This document shows, piece after piece, positions 12,270 to 24,312 of a stretch of DNA of 64,000 bases; the first letter of the stretch is position 1, and each line of letters opens with the position of its first letter. The position numbers were made by a program, and so were the translations under genes. The DNA is taken from assembly GCA_965205025.1 (NCBI GenBank), contig CBDBFU010000013.1, forward strand, positions 192,001 through 256,000, read 5' to 3'. The notes beneath the pieces were generated by a model, which did not search any database, was not told the DNA's origin, and saw nothing but the letters and a program-made list of their open reading frames with translations. Origin of the DNA: Candidatus Poribacteria bacterium (GTDB lineage: Bacteria; Poribacteria; WGA-4E; WGA-3G).

Positions 12270-13221
12270 ATGCAACCTAAAGAGAATACTTACACTACAA
12301 AAGATCTATCCTCAGAAGAAGTTAAACCATCGTCCATTCACCTTGATGAACGGATGAAATACCGTAAGGTTGATGGTGAATTGCTACAACGCGCGTGGCA
12401 CACCGCACACAAAATTGCAGCCATGCTTTATGAAGATTTCGGAGCATCGCAGGTCGCTGTATTTGGATCGCTTGCCGAAGGATATTGGTTTTCAACGGAA
12501 TCCGATATTGATATTGCTGTCTGGGGAATTCAAGGAGATACGTATCACGATGCTGTATGGGAAACCAGGAACTTTAGTACTGAATTTCGAATCGATCTCG
12601 TCAACTACCACAGTGCAAATGGACGATTTTGTGATCGGATACAAAACCAAGCCAATTCTAATTCAAGCAGAGAAAACTGGTTTAGATATTTCCATAGACA
12701 ACCAAGTCTCCTTTACATTAAAGGAAAATACTTCTGAAGTGAATAGTCGAAAACTCATTGAACGAATAACCGATGAACGCAAAAAATTAGAACAAACTGT
12801 TGAAGAAATTAGGGTGCGCCTCAAAAAAATAGAAATGATATCAGGTGAAGATCTGGAAGATCTTAAAGTTTTGGTTGCAATTCGTCTTCCTGTTTTTTAT
12901 ACGGGATTAGAGAACATATTTAAACGGATCGCTCGTGAAATTGACATGGATCAACCTCAGGGTAGAGATTGGCACAAAGATTTGTTAAATCAAATGGCAT
13001 CATCACACCGTATGCGTCCTGCCGTGATCTCGAGGAAATTAATTACCACTTTGGATCATATATTAAAGTTTCGTCACCGTTTCAGGAACATCTATGTGTT
13101 TGAGTTAGAACTTGAAAGAGTAGTTGAAAATGCACAACGAGTTTCTGATATATTTAAAGAACTCAATGGAGAACTTGGTAGTTTTATCAGGTGGATAGAG
13201 ACACAGACATCAGATAAGTAG
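12270..13221 (+). pseudogene. MNT-HEPN fusion paralog 2, frameshifted near 12650-12660
   Basis: MNT half in ORF 12270-12737 (VFGSL..SDIDI); HEPN half in another frame to 13221 (WHKDLL, FRHRFRNIY); paralogs are single ORFs. Confidence 0.7.
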
Positions 13222-13254
13222 ACTGTAGATCCTATTTTCCAAGGGAACAGTGAT

Positions 13255-14139
13255 ATGCAACAACCAAAAGAAAACACTCCCACTTCAAAAGATCTGTCCC
13301 CAGAAGAGGTAGAACTATCCTCCATCCGCTTTGATGAACGTTTGAAGAACCGTACGGTTGATTGTGAATTGCTACATCGCGCATGGGATACCGCACATCG
13401 GATTGCAGCCATGCTTTATGAAGTTTTTGGGGCAACTCAGGTTGCTGTATTTGGATCACTTGCCGAGGAATACTATTTTTCAAAATGGTCAGATATTGAT
13501 ATTGTTGTGTGGGGTATCCCTAATGACAAGTCCCTACGCGCTTTATCAGTGGCATCAGATATTAGTAGACTCTTTAAGGTAGATCTCGTGATGTTTGAGA
13601 ACTGTGAAAAAAAGTTTCAAGAACGAATAAGTAATCAACTAAGATATATAGAAAAAGGTGTAATATATAACGTGGACCGAAGTGGGTTTATTGAGCGTAT
13701 TGGTGCTGAACGCGATAAAATTGAAACAACAATTGCAAAAATTGACGATAGACTACAAAAAATAAAGACTGCTCCAGACGAATATAAAGAAGAGATTGAA
13801 ACAACAATTGCTAAGAATCTTGTAGATTGTTATCAAGGGATGGAGAATATCTTTAGACGGATAGCTCTTGATGTGGATTTACACTTACCTGATGGAAGCA
13901 TGTGGCATAAAGAATTGCTATCTCAGATGGTTGAACGACATGATGAACGACCATCTGTGATTACTCAAGAAACCTATCTCCGAATACAAGAACTATTGGA
14001 GTTTCGTCATGTTTTCAATAATATCTACGGAGAGGAATTGGTGTACGAAAGAACAGAAAAAATCGGTAAAGAAATTGGTGGATTGTTTCAAAACTTTTAT
14101 AAAGAACTGGACCTGTTCATCGCTTGGTTGGAGAAGTAA
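13255..14139 (+). CDS. MNT-HEPN fusion paralog 3
   Basis: VFGSL..SDIDI; YQGMENIF..IA, WHKELL, FRHVFNNIY. Confidence 0.8.
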   Translation: MQQPKENTPTSKDLSPEEVELSSIRFDERLKNRTVDCELLHRAWDTAHRIAAMLYEVFGATQVAVFGSLAEEYYFSKWSDIDIVVWGIPNDKSLRALSVASDISRLFKVDLVMFENCEKKFQERISNQLRYIEKGVIYNVDRSGFIERIGAERDKIETTIAKIDDRLQKIKTAPDEYKEEIETTIAKNLVDCYQGMENIFRRIALDVDLHLPDGSMWHKELLSQMVERHDERPSVITQETYLRIQELLEFRHVFNNIYGEELVYERTEKIGKEIGGLFQNFYKELDLFIAWLEK

Positions 14140-15495: not shown

Positions 15496-16623
15496 ATGCA
15501 AGTTCAGGCAGCGGTGATGCTCCAACCGGGGCAGATAGAAATCCGCGAATATGACAAACCAACACCGGAAGACGATTCGCTCATACTACAAGTAGACAAA
15601 GTTGGTATCTGTGGTAGTGACAAACACATGTACCTTGGACATACAGCACTTAAATTCCCTGTTATTCCAGGACATGAAGTAGTCGGTACAGTTGCTGAAA
15701 TCGGAAAGGATGCCAACAAAGTTATGAATGTAATGGGTGGTCCTATTAAGACTGGCGACCGAATTACTGTTGTACCCGGTTCAAAGAATTGTGGTAGATG
15801 CTACTACTGCTTACATGTACCAGGACGTCCGACTTTATGTTCAGGACGTACGATCTATGGGTTTAGTAATAGCGAGACTCCACCATACCTGAATGGTGAA
15901 TTTTCTGAATGTACATATATTCACGGGAACTCTTGGGTATATAAGATTCCTGATGATATTCCAGAGGAAATAGCAGTACTTACTGAACCTGTTGCTGTAG
16001 CGACACGTGCTGTTGAGCGTGCTTGTGCCCCCGGGTTTACCACAGATTGGGGATGGCTATAGTATTGGAAGCAGTGTCGCCGTACTCGGATGCGGACCGA
16101 TTGGACTTCTTGTGATTGCAGTCTTAAGAGATAGTGGGGCTGGTACAATTATCGCTACGGACCTTGTTGATAGCCGTTTGGAAATGGCACAGCACATGGG
16201 TGCGGATGTGGTTATTAATGTAGGAGATACTACACCAGAAGAAACGGGTTGAACAAATTCAGGATCTTACAAATGGTGTCGGTGTGGACATAGCGATTGA
16301 ATGTGCAGGTATACCTGCTGTTTTTTCAGAAGCTTTGGATGTTGTCAGACGCGGAGCGAAAGTCATAGAGGTAGGTCCATTATACTGATTCAGGCGATAT
16401 ACAAGTTAGACCTCATCAAATCTGTAACAAAGACCTTGATGTTTGTGGCGTGTGGGCATATCCACAGATCCAATTTCAGACAGCGTTAGATTTCCTTCAA
16501 AGAACACGGACACCCTTACACAAGCTAATTACGCATCGTCTACCCTTAAATCAATTAGAACATGGTATTGATATGCTTGGAAAAGAGGGTGTCTATAAGG
16601 TTGTTATCGAACCACAAACATAA
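15496..16623 (+). pseudogene. zinc-dependent alcohol dehydrogenase (MDR) split by several frameshifts
   Basis: GICGSD, GHE, CGRCYYC in the first frame; GCGPIG in the second; C-terminal part ends at TAA 16621-16623. Confidence 0.8.
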
Positions 16624-16676
16624 TGAACTGCTAAGAATTCCTATGTTTTAAAAAAGTCAACAATTCCTATACATAG

Positions 16677-17664
16677 GTGAAAAATATGAAAAATCGGAAC
16701 TACATACTCAAACTACTATTATTTCTAATCTTAGTATATATCGTTTCTTTTAATACCTCGATTACAATTGCTCAAGATATACCAAAAAAAGGTTCCTCGT
16801 TATTTACAACAATTGAAAACGCAAAAGAGTATATCATAAACAATCAGAATGTAGATGGCGGTTGGCCACTAATACCAGGTGAAGAAAGCGATGTTGAGAT
16901 CACAGCACTTGCTATCTGGTCTCTAATTGATGCGGATTGGGGAACAGGATCAAGTGTCGTTCGTCGCGGTGTCAGATATTTGGAAAGATACCAACGTGAA
17001 GATGGTAGTTGGAATAACAATACTGCTCACACCATTTTTAGTGTTATCGCATTGGCAAAGGGAAAAACAGCACCAGATATACGATTTAGGGGTTTACAAT
17101 GGCTGAAAAAAGCACAAAATCCTAGTGGTAGTTGGGGTAGTGAAAGCAATGATACTGGACATATCCTTTATACAGCAGCATCTCTTGTTGGACTAAAAAA
17201 AACTCGGGTTAACGCAGAGAAATTCCGAGCTTATTCCTTCTGGTATGAAATGGATAGCAGATCCAGAACGGATAAATTTTGATGGTGGATGGACATTACC
17301 CAATGGTACACAGTCAGATATTTATGTGACTTCTTGGGTATTGCAGGCACTATCTCCTGACTACGATCTTGATGAGCAGATTGCATGGATAAAGCAATTC
17401 CAAAATAAGGATGGTGGTTTCGGGAGATATAGAGGGAATTCAAGTGATCCAGAGGTTACTGCTACCGTAATTATGGCACTTGCAGCAAGTGAAGATCCAC
17501 TTAATACACGCCGTATAGCGATTTCTTATTTTACAAAGGCTCAATCTGAAAATGGCGGTTTTATTAGTGATACACCAATAGAACTCAAAACCCCAACCGA
17601 GAACTTACAAACTACCTGTTTTGTATTGATTGCCATTCATGCCAATACAAACAGTGAACAATAA
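16677..17664 (+). pseudogene. secreted prenyltransferase/squalene-cyclase repeat protein, frameshifted near an A-run at ~17195
   Basis: Signal peptide; repeated Q(N/R)xDG(G/S)W/F motifs in both ORFs (16677-17282 and 17245-17664). Confidence 0.75.
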
Positions 17665-17774: not shown

Positions 17775-19304
17775 CTAAAATTCAACCAGTAATTGTGGAA
17801 TAATCCTTGCACTACGTGTTGGTTTTTCAACGTTATTAATCTGATAGACAATCCTTGCTAATGCTCCTTCGGAGAAATGCCACGTTAAGGCACCACCAAG
17901 GGTTGACCACACCTGATCTTCATCCCCCCGATTGAATGTAAATGTGTTGAACTTTGTTGTGTTTGGATTCCACACATCATACTTCAATCGAACATCTAAT
18001 GTCTCAGACAAAGGCAATTCTGCATGAAGATAATAACCTTCAACAGAAGCATTTCTGTCTTCGGTTGGTATCGGAATATAAAGATACTTCAAGAGTTGTG
18101 TATCTCTACCTCTAACCCATTCAGCAGCAAAGTCAAGACGCCACAACTTGAAACTTGTTGCAAAACCAGCACGCCGTTTATATACTAACGTGGACGGGTT
18201 GACATCACCATTAATAGGATTAAATGGATAACTATTCCCATCAAAATAGGATCCACCAAGCCAAATTCTCTTACCAAAAACTGGCAGTGTCCCGTTTAAA
18301 TGGACAAACACTGGTGGACTGTTATTTCTAATCGGTTTTAAGATACCACCTCCACTTCCGTGTGGACCAATTTGTATGCCTTTAGCCACTGTGCCTTCTG
18401 TGACAGTTCGGAGCGAATCTGGTCCATCCGCAAGCGATACTACATAAGAGACTGGTCCTACAAATCCATTTAGTTGTAATCCACGATCAGAAATGAAACC
18501 GATATTCTTCCTTACCAAATTATATAATGGATTCGCTGCAGCATCCGACTTCGTATCTATACCAAATCCATGACGAAACCTACCTACTTTTAAAGAAGCA
18601 CCCTTTGGAAGGACAGGTAGTCCTGTCAGAATTGCATATACAAAACCGTGGTCATCAGCGACTTGTGTTCCCAAAGGAGAGGTCGTCAACAACTGCTCTC
18701 CTAATACACTCACATGATCCCCAATGCTCGTGGTAACGACAAATTCAGCAACGTGAATTAAGGTGGTTCCCGAATCCCAATTCTCTCTATCAGGGAACAG
18801 ATCTTTCCCACGAGTGATACGCCGTATATCTAACGCACCTCCGAAAACCAGATCTCCGAATGCACCACCCAGAAAATCTGAACCCCCTGTATCCTCTGAG
18901 ACATCAGCATCATCAAAACTAAAGACATTGTCATCATCAAGATCAATATCTTCATCGGATTCAGATAGTTCGTTCGATGTTTCAACATTTTCAGGTGTAC
19001 TGGCTGCATCTCCAGGATAGGAACGAGCAATAAGTTCTTTTATATTGCTAAACCCATCTTTATCAGAATCCATATTTTCAATACGTGTGAATGTAGACAT
19101 GTTCATTCCGTTATGTAAGAATGCTCTACCGTAAGGGTTTGGTGAATCTCCACCCTTCTTTGAAAAATGGCATACATTACATCCACCTGTCCATTTATAT
19201 TTTGTTTTGAACATTTTATAGAATGCTGGGAGAGCGTGGACTGATTGGTCTGCAATTAAGGTACAAAAGAGCACCATCACGCAGATAAATAGTATTTTGC
19301 GCAT
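17775..19304 (-). CDS. monoheme cytochrome c + outer-membrane beta-barrel fusion (Cyc2-like architecture)
   Basis: Signal peptide, ALPAF...CNVCH...NPYGRAF, DSDKDG acidic motif, acidic linker, alternating beta-strand C-terminal domain ending in F. Confidence 0.7.
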   Translation of the reverse strand: MRKILFICVMVLFCTLIADQSVHALPAFYKMFKTKYKWTGGCNVCHFSKKGGDSPNPYGRAFLHNGMNMSTFTRIENMDSDKDGFSNIKELIARSYPGDAASTPENVETSNELSESDEDIDLDDDNVFSFDDADVSEDTGGSDFLGGAFGDLVFGGALDIRRITRGKDLFPDRENWDSGTTLIHVAEFVVTTSIGDHVSVLGEQLLTTSPLGTQVADDHGFVYAILTGLPVLPKGASLKVGRFRHGFGIDTKSDAAANPLYNLVRKNIGFISDRGLQLNGFVGPVSYVVSLADGPDSLRTVTEGTVAKGIQIGPHGSGGGILKPIRNNSPPVFVHLNGTLPVFGKRIWLGGSYFDGNSYPFNPINGDVNPSTLVYKRRAGFATSFKLWRLDFAAEWVRGRDTQLLKYLYIPIPTEDRNASVEGYYLHAELPLSETLDVRLKYDVWNPNTTKFNTFTFNRGDEDQVWSTLGGALTWHFSEGALARIVYQINNVEKPTRSARIIPQLLVEF

Positions 19305-19363: not shown

Positions 19364-20341
19364 CTAATACGACTCAATATCAATTTCTTCACCCGTGAAT
19401 CGTATATGTGCTTGATTCACTAATGTCAATATTTGTTCCCACTGTTTACGCGTATCGTCTGTTATACCTGATTCATCAAGGGCATCAGCAAATTCTGTAA
19501 GCATTTTACCGAACTTTTCCTGCATCTCCGTGTATTCTTCTGTCTGATCAGCATTCATAGGTGGCTCAAATTCGGAGATTCCTTTTCCATATAGAACGAG
19601 TTTCTTAGCAGCAGATACTGCTTCTTCCTTCCCTTCACCTTTGTCAAAATAATCTATAATAGCATAATAAGCATCTACCATCAGAATCATAAGTTCCTTT
19701 AAATCCTCAACTTCAGGTATCTCTTCGGTTGGTTCTTCTGGTGTGGGTTTTTCTTCTGCTTCTGGCTTGGGTTTACGCTTCAGAAAGAGGGCATAACTCA
19801 TGACCAGTGTCTTTTTCGGCATTAAAGCAATCGCCTTAGATGCATCTTCTTGTCCCTTAACTGCTTCAACATCCTTTCCAACAGTGAAAGCATCGTCTAT
19901 TCCCTTGTCAACGAACTGCTTAAGAAATTTCTCTGAGGTAATTGACTCTGATTCCTTGTGATCATAAACAGCTACTTTCACAACTTTACCTTTCATGTTA
20001 AGTCCAACAGCCCCATCAATTTTCCCATGTGGTCCCTGCACATCAACGAATAATACCAAACCCATAGGTTTCTTATTCTCACCAATCGATATATAGAAAA
20101 TCGGTTTCAGGTCTTCTTTACGAAGTTTCGTCCCCAAATCTTTCTCAATGGACTTAATCTTGTCTGTTGTAAGCACAACACTTCTCTGAACGAATTTTTT
20201 CGCTTTTGGGAAAATACCTGCGAGTTTTTCACCCGGCCACTCAGTTTCATGCGTAATACCGAGTATCGGGGTGAATACCATCGCAAATGCAAACACAAAT
20301 ATTATACTATTTCGGATAGGAAGGTATTTATTGAATAACAT
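19364..20341 (-). CDS. exported FMN_bind-like domain + four-helix (cytochrome b562-like) domain protein
   Basis: Signal peptide; V.G.HG.I...VG....GKV..V.V..H.E......FLKQF pattern; Pro/Glu linker; helical C-terminal domain with Met near its start and His near its end. Confidence 0.6.
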   Translation of the reverse strand: MLFNKYLPIRNSIIFVFAFAMVFTPILGITHETEWPGEKLAGIFPKAKKFVQRSVVLTTDKIKSIEKDLGTKLRKEDLKPIFYISIGENKKPMGLVLFVDVQGPHGKIDGAVGLNMKGKVVKVAVYDHKESESITSEKFLKQFVDKGIDDAFTVGKDVEAVKGQEDASKAIALMPKKTLVMSYALFLKRKPKPEAEEKPTPEEPTEEIPEVEDLKELMILMVDAYYAIIDYFDKGEGKEEAVSAAKKLVLYGKGISEFEPPMNADQTEEYTEMQEKFGKMLTEFADALDESGITDDTRKQWEQILTLVNQAHIRFTGEEIDIESY

Positions 20342-20401: not shown

Positions 20402-21412
20402 TTACTCTTCTACTTTTACCATGAATGTAGGAAACAGAATCTGGTCCTTATGTTTTAGTTGCCCAAAAATCTGATAAATCCCTGCTTTCGGAAATGTAGT
20501 CATGAGCATAACGGAAGGTCCGAATTTATCGGGTGTTTCCCCCTGATGTTTATGTCCGGACGTAGGATCTTTTTTCTCCATTTTATGTCCTTTGTGGGAG
20601 ACATCTTTTTTCATTTTGCTATGATCCATATTCATCATCACTGAACCGTGTGTATGTACTATACCATCTAATTCAGTATTTACAATAGCAAAATGCATTG
20701 GAGCATCCAAAAATGGAACAAGATCGGTTATCGGTTTCCCTGCTTGTGAAAAATGATAATCGATATGAACCATCTCTCCTGCTTTAATTTTATCTTGGAC
20801 ATTCATTTTCACTTGATATACTGACGTGCCTTTTCCATCAGTTAAAACAGCCTTAGTATATCGGTCACCACCTTCTTCAGTATAACCGGAAACAGTTTTT
20901 TCTCGACTGAAATCTTCAGAAAGATCTGTCATCTTCTTCTCCCCTACAACATCAACATACAGATATTTCGAATATTCAGCATCTGCTGTCATCACATCCA
21001 GTGCCAATATATATCTACCTGCAGCGGGAAAAGTAAAGTGAACAGTATAGGTTCCTTCAAGTTCTGCCATCATGTCACGCTCATCGAAATCTTCAGGATG
21101 GATATGTCCAAGAATCTGTAGATTCTCACTTACAATTAAAACATGGAGAACCCGATCGTGGTGTATCATAAGATCTGTAAAGGGTTCACCCATTTTATCG
21201 GTGAGATTGAACATTAGAGTTGCTTGCTCACCTGCTTTAATATCTTCTGGTTCAGTGTGTAGACTTACATTCAAGACATCAGTTTTTTCTATCTGATGAG
21301 CACTATGATCTTCATGTTGGGCAGTATAGCCTATATGTACAAAATACAGGACGCTTATGAATATTGCAATAGCAATTCTTGGTGTGTAAAACGTGGAAAA
21401 TAGGGTTTTCAT
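20402..21412 (-). CDS. exported His/Met-rich heavy-metal-binding protein (two related beta-sandwich repeats)
   Basis: HEDHSAH, HHDRVLHVLIVS..GHIHP, PMHFAIV..HTH, FP..G.Y motifs twice, MMNMDH...HKGH; start ATG 21412 after TATGGAGGA. Confidence 0.7.
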   Translation of the reverse strand: MKTLFSTFYTPRIAIAIFISVLYFVHIGYTAQHEDHSAHQIEKTDVLNVSLHTEPEDIKAGEQATLMFNLTDKMGEPFTDLMIHHDRVLHVLIVSENLQILGHIHPEDFDERDMMAELEGTYTVHFTFPAAGRYILALDVMTADAEYSKYLYVDVVGEKKMTDLSEDFSREKTVSGYTEEGGDRYTKAVLTDGKGTSVYQVKMNVQDKIKAGEMVHIDYHFSQAGKPITDLVPFLDAPMHFAIVNTELDGIVHTHGSVMMNMDHSKMKKDVSHKGHKMEKKDPTSGHKHQGETPDKFGPSVMLMTTFPKAGIYQIFGQLKHKDQILFPTFMVKVEE

Positions 21413-21417
21413 TATAT

Positions 21418-21543
21418 TCCTCCATATAAATATATAAATTCTTAAAAAGAGTTTCAAATACTCTATTTATTCCGTGACTATACAATGGTCCGGAATAAAA
21501 ACAGTCAATTAAGATAATATTCTAAGAAAGGGTGTATGGAGGA
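21418..21543 (-). promoter_or_regulatory. putative translational attenuator (anti-SD in RGPPY codons, SD of the next gene, intervening hairpin)
   Basis: mRNA UCCUCCAUA (plus 21535-21543) is the exact complement of SD UAUGGAGGA (plus 21418-21426); hairpin ttattccg...cggaataa at about 21467-21498. Confidence 0.65.
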
Positions 21544-21959
21544 CCGCGACGGGATAGGTTCGAGGTTAATGGTAAGAGAGATAGGTTGTGGGGACTGAAG
21601 GTCTTTAGTTGTTGTTCTTGACCAACCATTACCGATGAATCAAGTAGGACTGAAGCAATTTTTAAGTGTTCATCCGATTGAGGGGTATAGTCAATACGAT
21701 AAGTGATTTCAGGAAGGATCACCTCGAAATTTGTTAAACAGCATGTATTTCCATCTTCTGATGTGCTATTGTTTTCACTTGAAGAATCCGCATCTTTGTT
21801 ATGGCAACAAGATGAATTGGTTTGAATACCATTCATATTTTGAATAAGTTTGCTACCACAAGATGTCTGTTCAACAGCTGCACAGTATAATGGACAAAAG
21901 GAATGAAGACAAACTAATGCCGTAAGTGAAAAGGTCAATAACCAATGTTTTTGGAACAT
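21522..21959 (-). CDS. secreted Cys-rich leader protein with C-terminal RGPP (DUF2946/CutF-like putative arrest peptide)
   Basis: Signal-like N-terminus, CLHSFCPLYC, SCCH, TCCL, ends LSRRGPPYTLS*. Confidence 0.7.
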   Translation of the reverse strand: MFQKHWLLTFSLTALVCLHSFCPLYCAAVEQTSCGSKLIQNMNGIQTNSSCCHNKDADSSSENNSTSEDGNTCCLTNFEVILPEITYRIDYTPQSDEHLKIASVLLDSSVMVGQEQQLKTFSPHNLSLLPLTSNLSRRGPPYTLS

Positions 21960-22114
21960 TGCTATTATCTCCGTTGTTTTAATGGAAATAGTTCGTGAAT
22001 TACACTTCTATGACATTATACACCATAATTCAAGAATGTTGCATTAAAATAACACAAAGCTCATTATTTATTTTGAGTAATTCCATTTCTAATTGAAAAT
22101 GTCTCTTTTTTGTA

Positions 22115-22342
22115 CCACAAACTTTATGAGGATTAAGTTTTAAATTCGGCAATTCTCATTATTCCAAACCCTGTAGGTTCGGTTTCCTAACCACGGGGAA
22201 TGCTAAATAGCATTCATACCGTTGATTCGAATTTCCTATCACATTACCGAATTATTATTTTAATCTTCATTCAGTTTGTGTCCTGAAAAATGACTACCAT
22301 AATAACCACCTAATGAGACAATAATTTATAGAAATGGTATAA
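22115..22342. repeat. nested MITE-like palindromic element containing a REP and the ~34-nt element
   Basis: cacaaact..atgaggattaa...ttaatcttcat..agtttgtg; same layout at 24347-24592. Confidence 0.75.
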
Positions 22343-22344
22343 TA

Positions 22345-24312
22345 TCAGCGTGGTAATGCAAAATAACCAATCCCAGTGAAAAACCCAACAAACATCCAAA
22401 TACCTACCATCACATACTCCCCAAAAATCAGACCAAATGCAATAGGACGGATTTTACGGTAAGTCAGGGGTCCACCAAACTTAAGTGTAATATATTTAAT
22501 CATCCACCCTATAAGGACAGATGACCATAAATGAAAAGCAGGATATGTTGCGCCTAATAAATACCCAATTGGGTGTAATGACCACCAAACAAAACTTTGA
22601 CGCATCCATAGCATGAAACCCGTAAAACCTGCGCCAGCAATCATACTATAAACCTCACCCCAATTTGTTTCTACAGGAAATTGGATGAGCTTATTCATCC
22701 GATTGAAATAACCGCGAGGTGCATTGATAAATGACCAATTCTGTAGAAACAATCCTCCTTTGTTATACACCAATGTCAATGATGCATAAACTGATACAAC
22801 AAGAGCAACCATAATTGAAACACCCAGTATCGGAACAACTTTGCGCCGCATCAATCCCACTTCATCCGCAGCTTTGAAACTGTGCAGAAAGTTCGGCATC
22901 ATGAATTCTCCCCAATCCCGGAGAAATGTTCGTTGAAAACTGAGAACAGCCAAACTCTTTTGTCCTATTGCCCCCGAACCAAGTGTATAGGTAATGTAAT
23001 CAGAAGGAAAGAATGGCGCTTGTACAAGCAACAAACCACCATTGACTACCATCCATGATAAGACAACAGAAGTTACAAAGATAGAAAGCATCGTTATGAT
23101 TGCTACCCATGTTTTGATTCCTGCGATGACTAAGAACGTAACAAGGATGACAAATCCGAAGATGAATCCGAAAAAAGCGATACGATATGAAAGTGGTTCA
23201 TTGCTATCATCCACTAAATGTCTATTTTCAATACTCTTCCCGTTGTACTTAACCATACCAAATGCTCTTTTTATTATGGATAGTATATGTTCACGTCCAC
23301 CCCAGAAAACAGCAGGAACAAAAATAAGATAGCCACCCATTACTTGACGACTACAACTTATCCACGGTCCAATGCCTACACCTGTTACATTCATAATAAT
23401 ATATTGAAGTTTAAAAAAGAGAAAGAAAAACCAAAGACTGAAAGACACTTCCAATGTAAGCAATGCAGCTACACCGATTACTGAAAAATAGATCGCAATA
23501 TTCATCCCTGGCCACATACCCAGTGTATGCCACGGTTTTTCAGTAAATGCGCGATGAATCTCAAAGATCATTGGAATCCGAGGCACCATTGGGAAATGTG
23601 CATGGAGTCCGTTGAGGAAGTGAATCACAAGCGGTAAAACCATACCTACCCATAATAACTTATTCTTAAAAAATGAGTTTAGGAGTGATCCACTTGCTGG
23701 TTCTGCTGCTAATTGTATAGGAATCTGGATGAGTGGAAAGGAAAACCTTTCACGTTCTACCCACTGCTTGCGAAGAATGGCTGATAGACAGATTATCGTG
23801 AAATAGAATACAACAACAAATAATCCCCAGACTAAGAGAGGATTAATCCAAGAGACCCAAGGAATATTACCACCTGGAGATAGTCCTTCATAGAAATCGG
23901 TTACGGCTTGTGTATCCGTAACGACTAACCAGTCTGGGATCTGTGGTTGGAGTGTTTCTGCCCAATCGTTCACTGGTGTTGTGAAATAACGAAGTGCTAC
24001 AAGGCAAGGGATAAGGAACTGTAACAGTCCCATGGATGGAATACCAACAGCAACAATCAGCATCATCCAAATTACAGTTAATTCGAGTGATGTGAATGAA
24101 AGTCGACGACTCCATCTCAAGAAACGTAAAGGAAGGTTGACAATGAAAACAAGTAGGAGTAGACCTAAAATTGAGCCAACTGGAAGGTGATTACCTGCCA
24201 GTCTCGAATTCTCTAAGAAATAGTTATTGTAGGGTGAGATTGCACAAATTCCACCTACTAATAGCAATCCTACAAGGATAGCAGAAATACGAATCTTTGG
24301 GTGGACAGGCAT
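22345..24312 (-). CDS. DUF6785/DUF6784-type membrane protein paralog
   Basis: RKQWVERERFSFP, FTEKPW, WWSLHPIGY. Confidence 0.75.
   Translation of the reverse strand: MPVHPKIRISAILVGLLLVGGICAISPYNNYFLENSRLAGNHLPVGSILGLLLLVFIVNLPLRFLRWSRRLSFTSLELTVIWMMLIVAVGIPSMGLLQFLIPCLVALRYFTTPVNDWAETLQPQIPDWLVVTDTQAVTDFYEGLSPGGNIPWVSWINPLLVWGLFVVVFYFTIICLSAILRKQWVERERFSFPLIQIPIQLAAEPASGSLLNSFFKNKLLWVGMVLPLVIHFLNGLHAHFPMVPRIPMIFEIHRAFTEKPWHTLGMWPGMNIAIYFSVIGVAALLTLEVSFSLWFFFLFFKLQYIIMNVTGVGIGPWISCSRQVMGGYLIFVPAVFWGGREHILSIIKRAFGMVKYNGKSIENRHLVDDSNEPLSYRIAFFGFIFGFVILVTFLVIAGIKTWVAIITMLSIFVTSVVLSWMVVNGGLLLVQAPFFPSDYITYTLGSGAIGQKSLAVLSFQRTFLRDWGEFMMPNFLHSFKAADEVGLMRRKVVPILGVSIMVALVVSVYASLTLVYNKGGLFLQNWSFINAPRGYFNRMNKLIQFPVETNWGEVYSMIAGAGFTGFMLWMRQSFVWWSLHPIGYLLGATYPAFHLWSSVLIGWMIKYITLKFGGPLTYRKIRPIAFGLIFGEYVMVGIWMFVGFFTGIGYFALPR

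Follow-up and report, generated by a model that had tools for sequence, protein, structure and literature searches.

A probable metal-sensing arrest leader in Poribacteria whose Gly-Pro-Pro codons are complementary to the Shine-Dalgarno sequence of the next gene

The DNA analysed here (the window) is a 64,000-nucleotide stretch of the genome of a Candidatus Poribacteria bacterium (G000). On its minus strand, a small open reading frame (the leader) precedes a cluster of three genes (Table 1). The leader protein consists of a hydrophobic helix with a CPxxC motif, followed by a single Cys, two CC pairs, a weakly conserved linker and an invariant R-x-P-P motif. In the alignments, the helix carries the near-invariant C22-P-x-x-C26 together with C34. 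The AlphaFold model of the whole protein is of low confidence (pLDDT 57, pTM 0.26), with a block of pLDDT 76-93 over residues 1-30 and a low-confidence remainder, and the modelled helix is likely to be a signal or signal-anchor. The leader matched no family in Pfam and NCBIfam searches, and the ESM Atlas returned unnamed clusters only, plus a lead to DUF6769 at 0.95 (148/256 features shared).

Table 1. Features of the leader and of the gene cluster behind it; positions are those of the window.
Feature	Position	Strand	Remarks
Leader ORF	21522..21959	-	145 aa, 8 Cys; ends S-R-R-G-P-P-Y-T-L-S-stop
Hydrophobic N-terminal helix, residues 4-39	21843..21950	-	AlphaFold, hydropathy ~1.5, alignments
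C51-C52 pair	21804..21809	-	Invariant in alignment A1; C52 at least 90% conserved in alignment A3
C73-C74 pair	21738..21743	-	63 residues ahead of the motif Arg (fixed ruler)
C-rich, G-poor tract	21525..21614	-	Last 90 coding nt, C 41%, G 8%; rut-like
R138-G-P140-P141 arrest-motif codons, CGC GGU CCU CCA	21537..21548	-	Motif R, P and P invariant in 27 aligned homologs
Anti-SD UCCUCCAUA	21535..21543	-	Gly wobble base, Pro-Pro, first two Tyr bases
Second helix, 5' arm, over the stop codon	21520..21528	-	9 bp
Inner hairpin, shortens the loop	21466..21499	-	12 bp, one bulge, -12.2 kcal/mol alone
Second helix, 3' arm	21439..21447	-	Pairs with 21528-21520
Shine-Dalgarno sequence UAUGGAGGA of the next gene	21418..21426	-	Exact complement of UCCUCCAUA; matches the 16S tail
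First target gene	20402..21412	-	336 aa, exported, His/Met-rich, two-domain beta-sandwich (YtkA-like); PF13115, E 5e-6
Second gene, FMN-binding-domain protein	19364..20341	-	325 aa; PF04205, E 2e-4
Third gene	17775..19304	-	509 aa, one CxxCH; partial match to NF041762, E 2e-16, far below cut-off

The YtkA-like first target was modelled with a pLDDT of 68; its fold matched only generic Ig-like structures and its sequence had no match in the PDB. Among its distant homologs, the genes next to three (of 95 records, three were checked) encode a heavy-metal P-type ATPase, HMA and cupredoxin proteins, HMBD and TolC proteins, or a multicopper oxidase; in these same three records (Hymenobacter, Gloeocapsa and Cytobacillus), no annotated gene ending in RxPP lies directly upstream. 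On the Hymenobacter plasmid (L085:2973-3707), the first-target homolog is preceded by two short ORFs that contain CC and PP motifs and are possibly a CutF-like leader of Bacteroidota; one of them ends ...HLPPKIPDIRIFIQSLTV. The gene for the FMN-binding protein occupies the same place in the full-length loci. In the third protein, the CxxCH motif is likely a c-type heme site and the C-terminal part is probably porin-like; the Atlas gave a lead to PF07396 in 20% of a cluster, and a plasmid search gave no match. None of the window's own target genes carries a direct copper annotation. Sister leaders, however, head operons of the types lipoprotein-OEP-multicopper oxidase (Tat) and YHS-OEP-OEP-CusB/HMBD. 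The family suggests that the unannotated three-gene cluster, which is kept in nearly all sampled genomes of the genus, likely handles copper or silver.

The original prediction held that the G-P-P-Y codons of the leader are exactly complementary to the Shine-Dalgarno (SD) sequence ahead of the ATG at 21412. This was confirmed: the codons CGC GGU CCU CCA UAC contain UCCUCCAUA, the partner of UAUGGAGGA just 5' of that ATG. The 16S rRNA tail of this genome reads ...GAUCACCUCCUUUCU and contains CACCUCCU; GGAGG is thus a genuine SD sequence here, and it stands ahead of 175 of the 2136 long ORFs. When the RNA was folded, the 9-bp helix between anti-SD and SD was present in the minimum free energy (MFE) structure, with pair probabilities of 0.82-1.00 for eight pairs; for the outer U-A pair, the value was 0.44-0.88 and varied with the extent of sequence that was folded. 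The region had a folding z-score of -1.97, and 8 of 200 shuffled sequences were equally stable. The intervening hairpin, expected at about 21467-21498, was found at 21499-21466. Folding also revealed a second 9-bp helix, absent from the original prediction, so that the predicted structure is a nested rod made of the anti-SD/SD helix, a helix over the stop codon and the inner hairpin. No Rfam covariance model matched at E<=1 within 21300-22400, and our scan listed no terminator-like site in the intergenic region between leader and target. A promoter scan performed at chance level (18 vs 16.1), and the TTGAAA-17-TATATT found at 21457-21429 was not counted as evidence.

We considered how much of this complementarity is expected by chance. 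Given the peptide and the SD sequence, a 9-bp run occurred in 11.7% of 5000 synonymous recodings and pairing of at least 5 bp in 60% of them (this genome), while 8 of 60 recodings hid the SD as strongly. Since Pro-Pro forces CCNCC, the match in a single genome is near chance, and we rejected it as significant on its own. At the level of sequence, it is the conservation in relatives, and not the match in one genome, that confirmed the pairing as real.

To describe this conservation, the sample has to be defined. The leader is present in 35 of 36 genomes of the same genus and in 146 of 176 genomes of the phylum (27-row profile A3), all within four families of one order; among 17 genomes from other families the profile search found it in 0, and a global search of representatives gave only 35 clusters. 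Of about 158 leader matches, 103 loci were examined, 43 as a first draw and 60 chosen manually so as to cover diverse genera; 25 of the latter belong to genus g13, where they come from 24 of its 64 matching genomes. In 67 loci the leader is followed by a GGAGG SD heading a long ORF (GGAGG-type loci; 42 ytkA-first, 23 lipoprotein-OEP-multicopper oxidase and 2 sigma-like), which leaves 36 others. Rows G017, G029 and G004b were omitted from alignment A2, and 10 loci with more than 130 nt between stop codon and SD were excluded from the intergenic-fold, stall-model and tail-pairing tests, in which 57 remained. Both sigma-like loci, L104 (G083) and L105 (G080), have the leader before a 187-aa protein that looks, by eye, like an ECF sigma factor; in L104, OEP-like genes follow.

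A lack of conserved pairing had been named as grounds for refuting the original prediction, and this is not what was found: in-register pairing was predicted with P>0.5 in 60 of the 67 GGAGG-type loci (31/35, 6/6 and 23/26). The GGAGG itself is present in 42/42 ytkA-first loci, and RNAalifold, run on 40 sequences, chose the anti-SD/SD helix unprompted. The only free base of the core is the wobble position of the first Pro codon (Pro1), which is U (CCU) in 63 of the 67 loci and C in one. Within the genus, Pro1 is CCU in 34/35 loci, whereas the codons of Pro2 (34% at most) and of the Pro of the CP motif (49%) vary; in the downstream gene, only 3 of 48 invariant four-fold columns, and none of 9 prolines, are equally fixed. 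Genome-wide, CCU is the first codon of Pro-Pro in 25% of cases. In three loci with an altered SD (GAGGGG, GGGGG, and GGAGA with RSPP), the MFE structure still paired the SD with the arrest codons.

The flanks of the core bear on the covariation in homologs that had been put forward as a check. Pair types change between lineages (U-A to A-U; A-U, G-C and U-A): the arrangement is U-CCUCC-AUA/UAU-GGAGG-A here and A-CCUCC-GUUU/AAAC-GGAGG-U before the oxidase operons, with CUU/AAG in G089 and UCUUU/AAAGA in G080 as further variants. In a set of 19 representatives below 60% identity, pairing was seen in 60 of 95 flank cells, against 39.7±4.1 after permutation, and 79% of flank cells were paired in register against 40-50% in slid registers. 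Covariation is seen mostly between clades and is weak within them (p ~0.04 in the ytkA group; no excess, p 0.55, in the oxidase group). Four of the core pairs are invariant and the fifth is broken in 1/40, so the core carries no covariation. The description of the anti-SD as perfect applies to the exact 9 bp found here, but this length is specific to the lineage, and the conserved core is limited to CCUCC/GGAGG. As regards the second helix, pairing of the tail with the sequence before the SD (at least 4 expected pairs) was predicted in 26/57 loci, mostly in the ytkA-type group. The inner hairpin was rejected as a conserved element: its sequence varies, and intergenic folding is only modestly above that of shuffled sequences (median z -1.1, below -1.5 in 16/57 loci).

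The pairing is not universal in the leader family. It is predicted to be lost (P<=0.5) in 7 of the 67 GGAGG-type loci, including G010, where Pro1 is CCA. In 26 of the 103 loci, the leader heads a CxxU-porin gene; the start of this gene lacks a GGAGG, and the arrest codons find no consistent pairing partner. Universality was rejected on account of this subgroup. There, Pro1 is CCU in 18/26 and CCC in 5/26 loci. The difference from 63/67 has a Fisher p of 0.003, kin being not independent, and the 18 CCU codons found where consistent pairing is lacking mean that the codon bias is in part due to something else. Two genomes show other arrangements. G007 (L066 6907-7108) lacks the leader together with the 5' part of the intergenic region and keeps the 3' part, the SD and the operon, and in G050 the first target gene is present without a leader.

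The porin gene of the SD-less subgroup deserves a description of its own. In L068:4731-5774 (-), in 25 further loci and in this genome (G000:C4 ~82430-81360, -), a signal peptide is followed by Q-E-S-C-x-A-UGA, or by a UGA-x-x-UGA variant in G000 and L101, and the frame continues past the UGA as a beta-barrel-like protein of ~348 aa. This CxxU/UxxU ORF, which had no NCBIfam match, is a candidate selenoprotein porin; it is often the first gene behind the leader family, and G000 has a tRNA-Sec. In L126 (G161) and L110 (G105), the leader and the CxxU porin are followed by a YtkA-like and/or an FMN-binding gene, an order that connects both types of operon. The leader and the porin of L136 are separated by a 353-aa ORF.

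In the leader protein, R-x-P-P is unchanged among homologs of 13-40% identity, and among the 2136 long ORFs of the genome RGPP occurs 0 times and RAPP once, against 8-9 times each for AAPP, LAPP and LGPP (these are small numbers). The last CC pair lies 62-65 residues before the motif Arg in 66 of the 67 GGAGG-type loci (63 in 54 of them; in the remaining locus no CC was found) and 60-64 residues before it in 36/36 other loci. The tail behind RxPP counts exactly four codons in 67/67 GGAGG-type loci, as opposed to 21/36 others. The fixed Cys spacing and the four-codon tail imply selection on the geometry of the nascent chain.

The end of the leader gene also contains a rut-like tract that the original prediction had missed. 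Its excess of C over G exceeds that of all 2136 long-ORF ends of the genome, and it is above synonymous recoding at p<0.05 in 36/43 loci, the null being built by applying the codon usage of this genome to every locus. In the predicted fold, the tract is largely unpaired 5' of the RGPP motif. It persists where SD pairing is absent (C-G of 12-32 per 90 nt among the loci listed), and the genome encodes Rho. The tract suggests a second, Rho-based layer of control.

Taken together, we consider it probable that the 145-aa gene is a metal-sensing arrest leader, the Gly-Pro-Pro codons of which keep the next SD closed unless a ribosome is stalled there. The interpretation given in the original prediction, that stalling would switch the operon on, is supported. 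The mechanism would start from the conserved complementarity between arrest codons and SD observed in the sequence. In the absence of a ribosome, the mRNA is predicted to fold into the nested rod and to hide the SD (opening cost 9.5 kcal/mol). RAPP-type peptides are described as stalling with the motif's third and fourth codons in the P and A sites (PMC12992588); a ribosome stalled with the same geometry, its P and A sites holding Pro140 and Pro141 respectively, would therefore sit on 21542-21537, at the centre of the anti-SD, and would cover this sequence. When a stalled ribosome was modelled as a 30-nt footprint, the median opening cost of the SD fell from 9.7 to 4.2 kcal/mol (9.5 to 5.0 in this genome), with a decrease of at least 2 kcal/mol in 53/57 loci; in the stalled model of this genome, the SD was only 16% unpaired, being mostly paired elsewhere. 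The stalled ribosome would presumably also stop Rho from acting on the C-rich tract, both layers then obeying the rule that the stalled state is ON.

The least secure part of this scheme concerns the signal. The N-terminal helix may engage the translocon, in which case the CC pair would lie at the periplasmic exit or close to it. In the absence of metal, the chain would then be pulled free by translocation and by disulfide folding (OFF); copper (or silver) bound to the thiols would remove the pull (ON), as proposed for CutF. Copper is the likely signal, judging from the neighbouring genes. Copper is reported to promote stalling in CutF (bioRxiv 2025.02.05.636593), and since the targets look like detoxification functions, they fit with this polarity. 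Periplasmic folding has been described to pull on an arrest peptide at ~70 residues (bioRxiv 2021.02.06.430026), and by analogy the 63-residue spacer, which is near this value, suggests periplasmic sensing. Much more tentatively, the whole may represent a transmembrane metal-sensor family spread across this lineage of the phylum, in which one 9-nt stretch would be both arrest site and anti-SD, backed by the adjacent rut tract, so that a single stall could gate translation and transcription; the 63-residue ruler, unlike the CxxC ruler of 44 residues in a second, CruR-like leader of this genome, would set the CC pair at the periplasmic exit, and the module would have been swapped before at least four operon types, with the SD lock kept or dropped.

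We considered whether the main output could instead be Rho-dependent attenuation, with the stall shielding the rut tract and the SD pairing serving as an additional lock or arising as a side effect of the high pyrimidine content. In this case, the polarity could be that of CruR, in which metal releases the stall and turns expression off. The extreme C-G excess of the tract, its persistence in loci without SD pairing and the presence of Rho are in keeping with such a role, as is the fact that the rut of CruR has been mapped to an unstructured C>G bubble (PMC9426467). Yet C-richness would favour CCC and so does not explain the preference for CCU (63 CCU and 1 CCC in the 67 GGAGG-type loci, with CCC in 5 of the 26 unpaired ones). 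Moreover, a rut would leave the covariation of the flanks and the matching to altered SDs unexplained, the recoding null rests on the codon usage of this genome at all loci, and detoxification-type targets are better suited to induction by metal. We therefore regard attenuation as the main output as unlikely. A leader that monitors export or oxidative folding rather than metal, through SecM-like pulling and Cys disulfides, and that turns up envelope genes when secretion or the oxidation of thiols falls behind, would account for the N-terminal hydrophobic helix and for the signal peptides often carried by the targets. The 63-residue spacer, the subgroup heading a CxxU/UxxU protein and the two loci heading a protein that looks by eye like an ECF sigma factor would be compatible with it as well. 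However, no sec, yidC or dsb gene was seen behind the leader at the examined loci. The downstream genes seen were YtkA-like, OEP, oxidase, CusB-type or sigma-like, and the recognised targets are multicopper oxidase, OEP, CusB/HMBD and His/Met-rich proteins, which makes this explanation quite improbable.

Finally, there might be no regulated stall at all, either because ribosomes that pass or terminate on the leader are constitutively coupled to the next gene or because the complementarity is incidental to the Pro-Pro codons. Pro-Pro is always CCNCC, with the frequent pairing of at least 5 bp among recodings of this genome mentioned above, anti-SD-like sequences are reported to resemble Pro codons and to pair over long ranges generally (PMC12697547), and G007 has lost the leader. 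Still, the invariance of R-x-P-P at 13-40% identity, the near absence of RGPP and RAPP from the remaining proteome, the fixed Cys spacing and the four-codon tail argue against this, and we hold it to be very unlikely. The reading as a metal-sensing arrest leader that unmasks the SD is the one retained for comparison with known systems.

The closest of these is CutF-cutO of Rhodobacter capsulatus (PMC9973294; bioRxiv 10.1101/2025.02.05.636593). As described there, CutF is also a small, exported, Cys-containing leader with a C-terminal proline motif, the SD of the next gene is likewise hidden in a stem, and cutO has its counterpart in the Tat multicopper oxidase genes headed by sister leaders here. 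The present leader falls within the length, motif and gene-distance limits of a filter for CutF-like proteins (at most 150 aa, PP in the last 15 residues, a same-strand gene within 1000 nt; PMC9973294), with its 145 aa, PP 4 residues from the end and 109 nt to the ATG; some homologs have 155 aa. The filter also asks for a Sec signal peptide cleaved by SPase I, for which the hydrophobic N-terminal helix is a candidate. CutF differs, according to these accounts, by a CxxxC, a PPP motif and the involvement of EF-P, and its stem-loop is intergenic and melted by ribosomal helicase activity. In our case the motif is RGPP or RAPP, and the arrest codons themselves are the anti-SD, ~100 nt away from the SD. 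The Cys pattern, CPxxC/C/CC/CC with a ruler of 63 residues, is also different, the residue numbering given for CutF implying a shorter spacer.

CruR (Bp2923, DUF2946/PF11162) of Bordetella pertussis (PMC9426467) resembles the leader in its 145 aa, its RAPP-type motif near the C terminus, the fixed spacing between Cys and motif, the C>G tract near the 3' end and the long intergenic region; in the leader, RGPP or RAPP 4 residues from the end constitutes such a motif. As reported, CruR has a CxxC 45 residues before RAPP and acts via Rho, and copper turns an uptake operon off, whereas the leader here has a CC pair at 63 residues and a conserved SD pairing, and its targets resemble detoxification genes. 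PF11162 matched neither the leader nor 27 family members (E<=1), nor this locus in a genome-wide search. A CxxC ~45 residues before the motif is absent, the nearest Cys pair being the CC at 62-65 and the only CPxxC lying at residues 22-26. Membership of DUF2946/CruR was therefore rejected, by HMM and by Cys pattern. On the sequence evidence, the leader likely works like CutF, by SD unmasking, with the CruR-like features of RxPP, ruler and C>G tract.

Outside the window, this genome has a second arrest-type leader of 119 aa (L082:8296-8655, -, which corresponds to G000:C13:44654-44295), with a CxxC 44 residues before RAPP. It heads genes for a His-rich protein, a TonB receptor and CobW, and has a CruR-like anatomy with no match to PF11162; the codons just after its RAPP are predicted to pair with a GGAGA site 235 nt downstream.

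That an RGPP arrest can open an SD-masking stem was shown for uDF_RQH_Enterobacterales, the peptide of which induces secDF2 of Alteromonas in this way (PMC10987492), as we propose here. That peptide, unlike the present one, monitors Sec and sits before secDF, and the available text of the study is silent on arrest codons acting as anti-SD. At the loci seen here, the leader does not lie directly upstream of secA, secDF or yidC, the placement typical of SecM, Apd and RQH peptides. The same study reports that RAPP-like motifs alone often fail to stall, and SD-masking hairpins were, according to PMC7897499, not predicted for ApcA, ApdA and ApdP. The leader also fits, by its small size, predicted export or membrane location and conserved C-terminal RGPP/RAPP, the class of small ORFs (<300 aa) with a C-terminal RAPP/RGPP motif, a localisation signal, conserved Cys and metal-related neighbours described in PMC12992588. 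All but one of the supplementary files of that survey were searched and none of these mentions 'Poribacteria', nor did our literature search find a stalling paper mentioning Poribacteria or a text stating that RxPP codons themselves are the anti-SD, figures and subscription journals lying outside its scope.

This 2025 survey lists as open whether and how arrest controls downstream genes (PMC12992588), and it leaves the output mechanism open, its main text containing 0 occurrences of 'stem', 'Shine' and 'secondary structure'. The leader family is a concrete candidate answer to this question. Since CCU-CCN Pro-Pro codons mimic the 16S tail, the stall site itself can be the switch, without a separate anti-SD. 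A single synonymous change, CCU to CCA, is enough to set the role of the RNA apart from that of the peptide, and natural control variants exist in the form of SD-less, leader-less, altered-SD and RSPP loci.

Elsewhere in the window, a squalene-cyclase/prenyltransferase-repeat gene convergent with the operon (16677-17664, +) is split into ORFs of 201 and 139 aa, whereas it is single in relatives (327-341 aa). Genes at 15496-16489 also look split, and the split genes over 15496-17664 are possibly due to assembly indels. At 12270-14139 (+), two tandem copies of a gene pair are present that look, by eye and from their translations, like nucleotidyltransferase/HEPN pairs.
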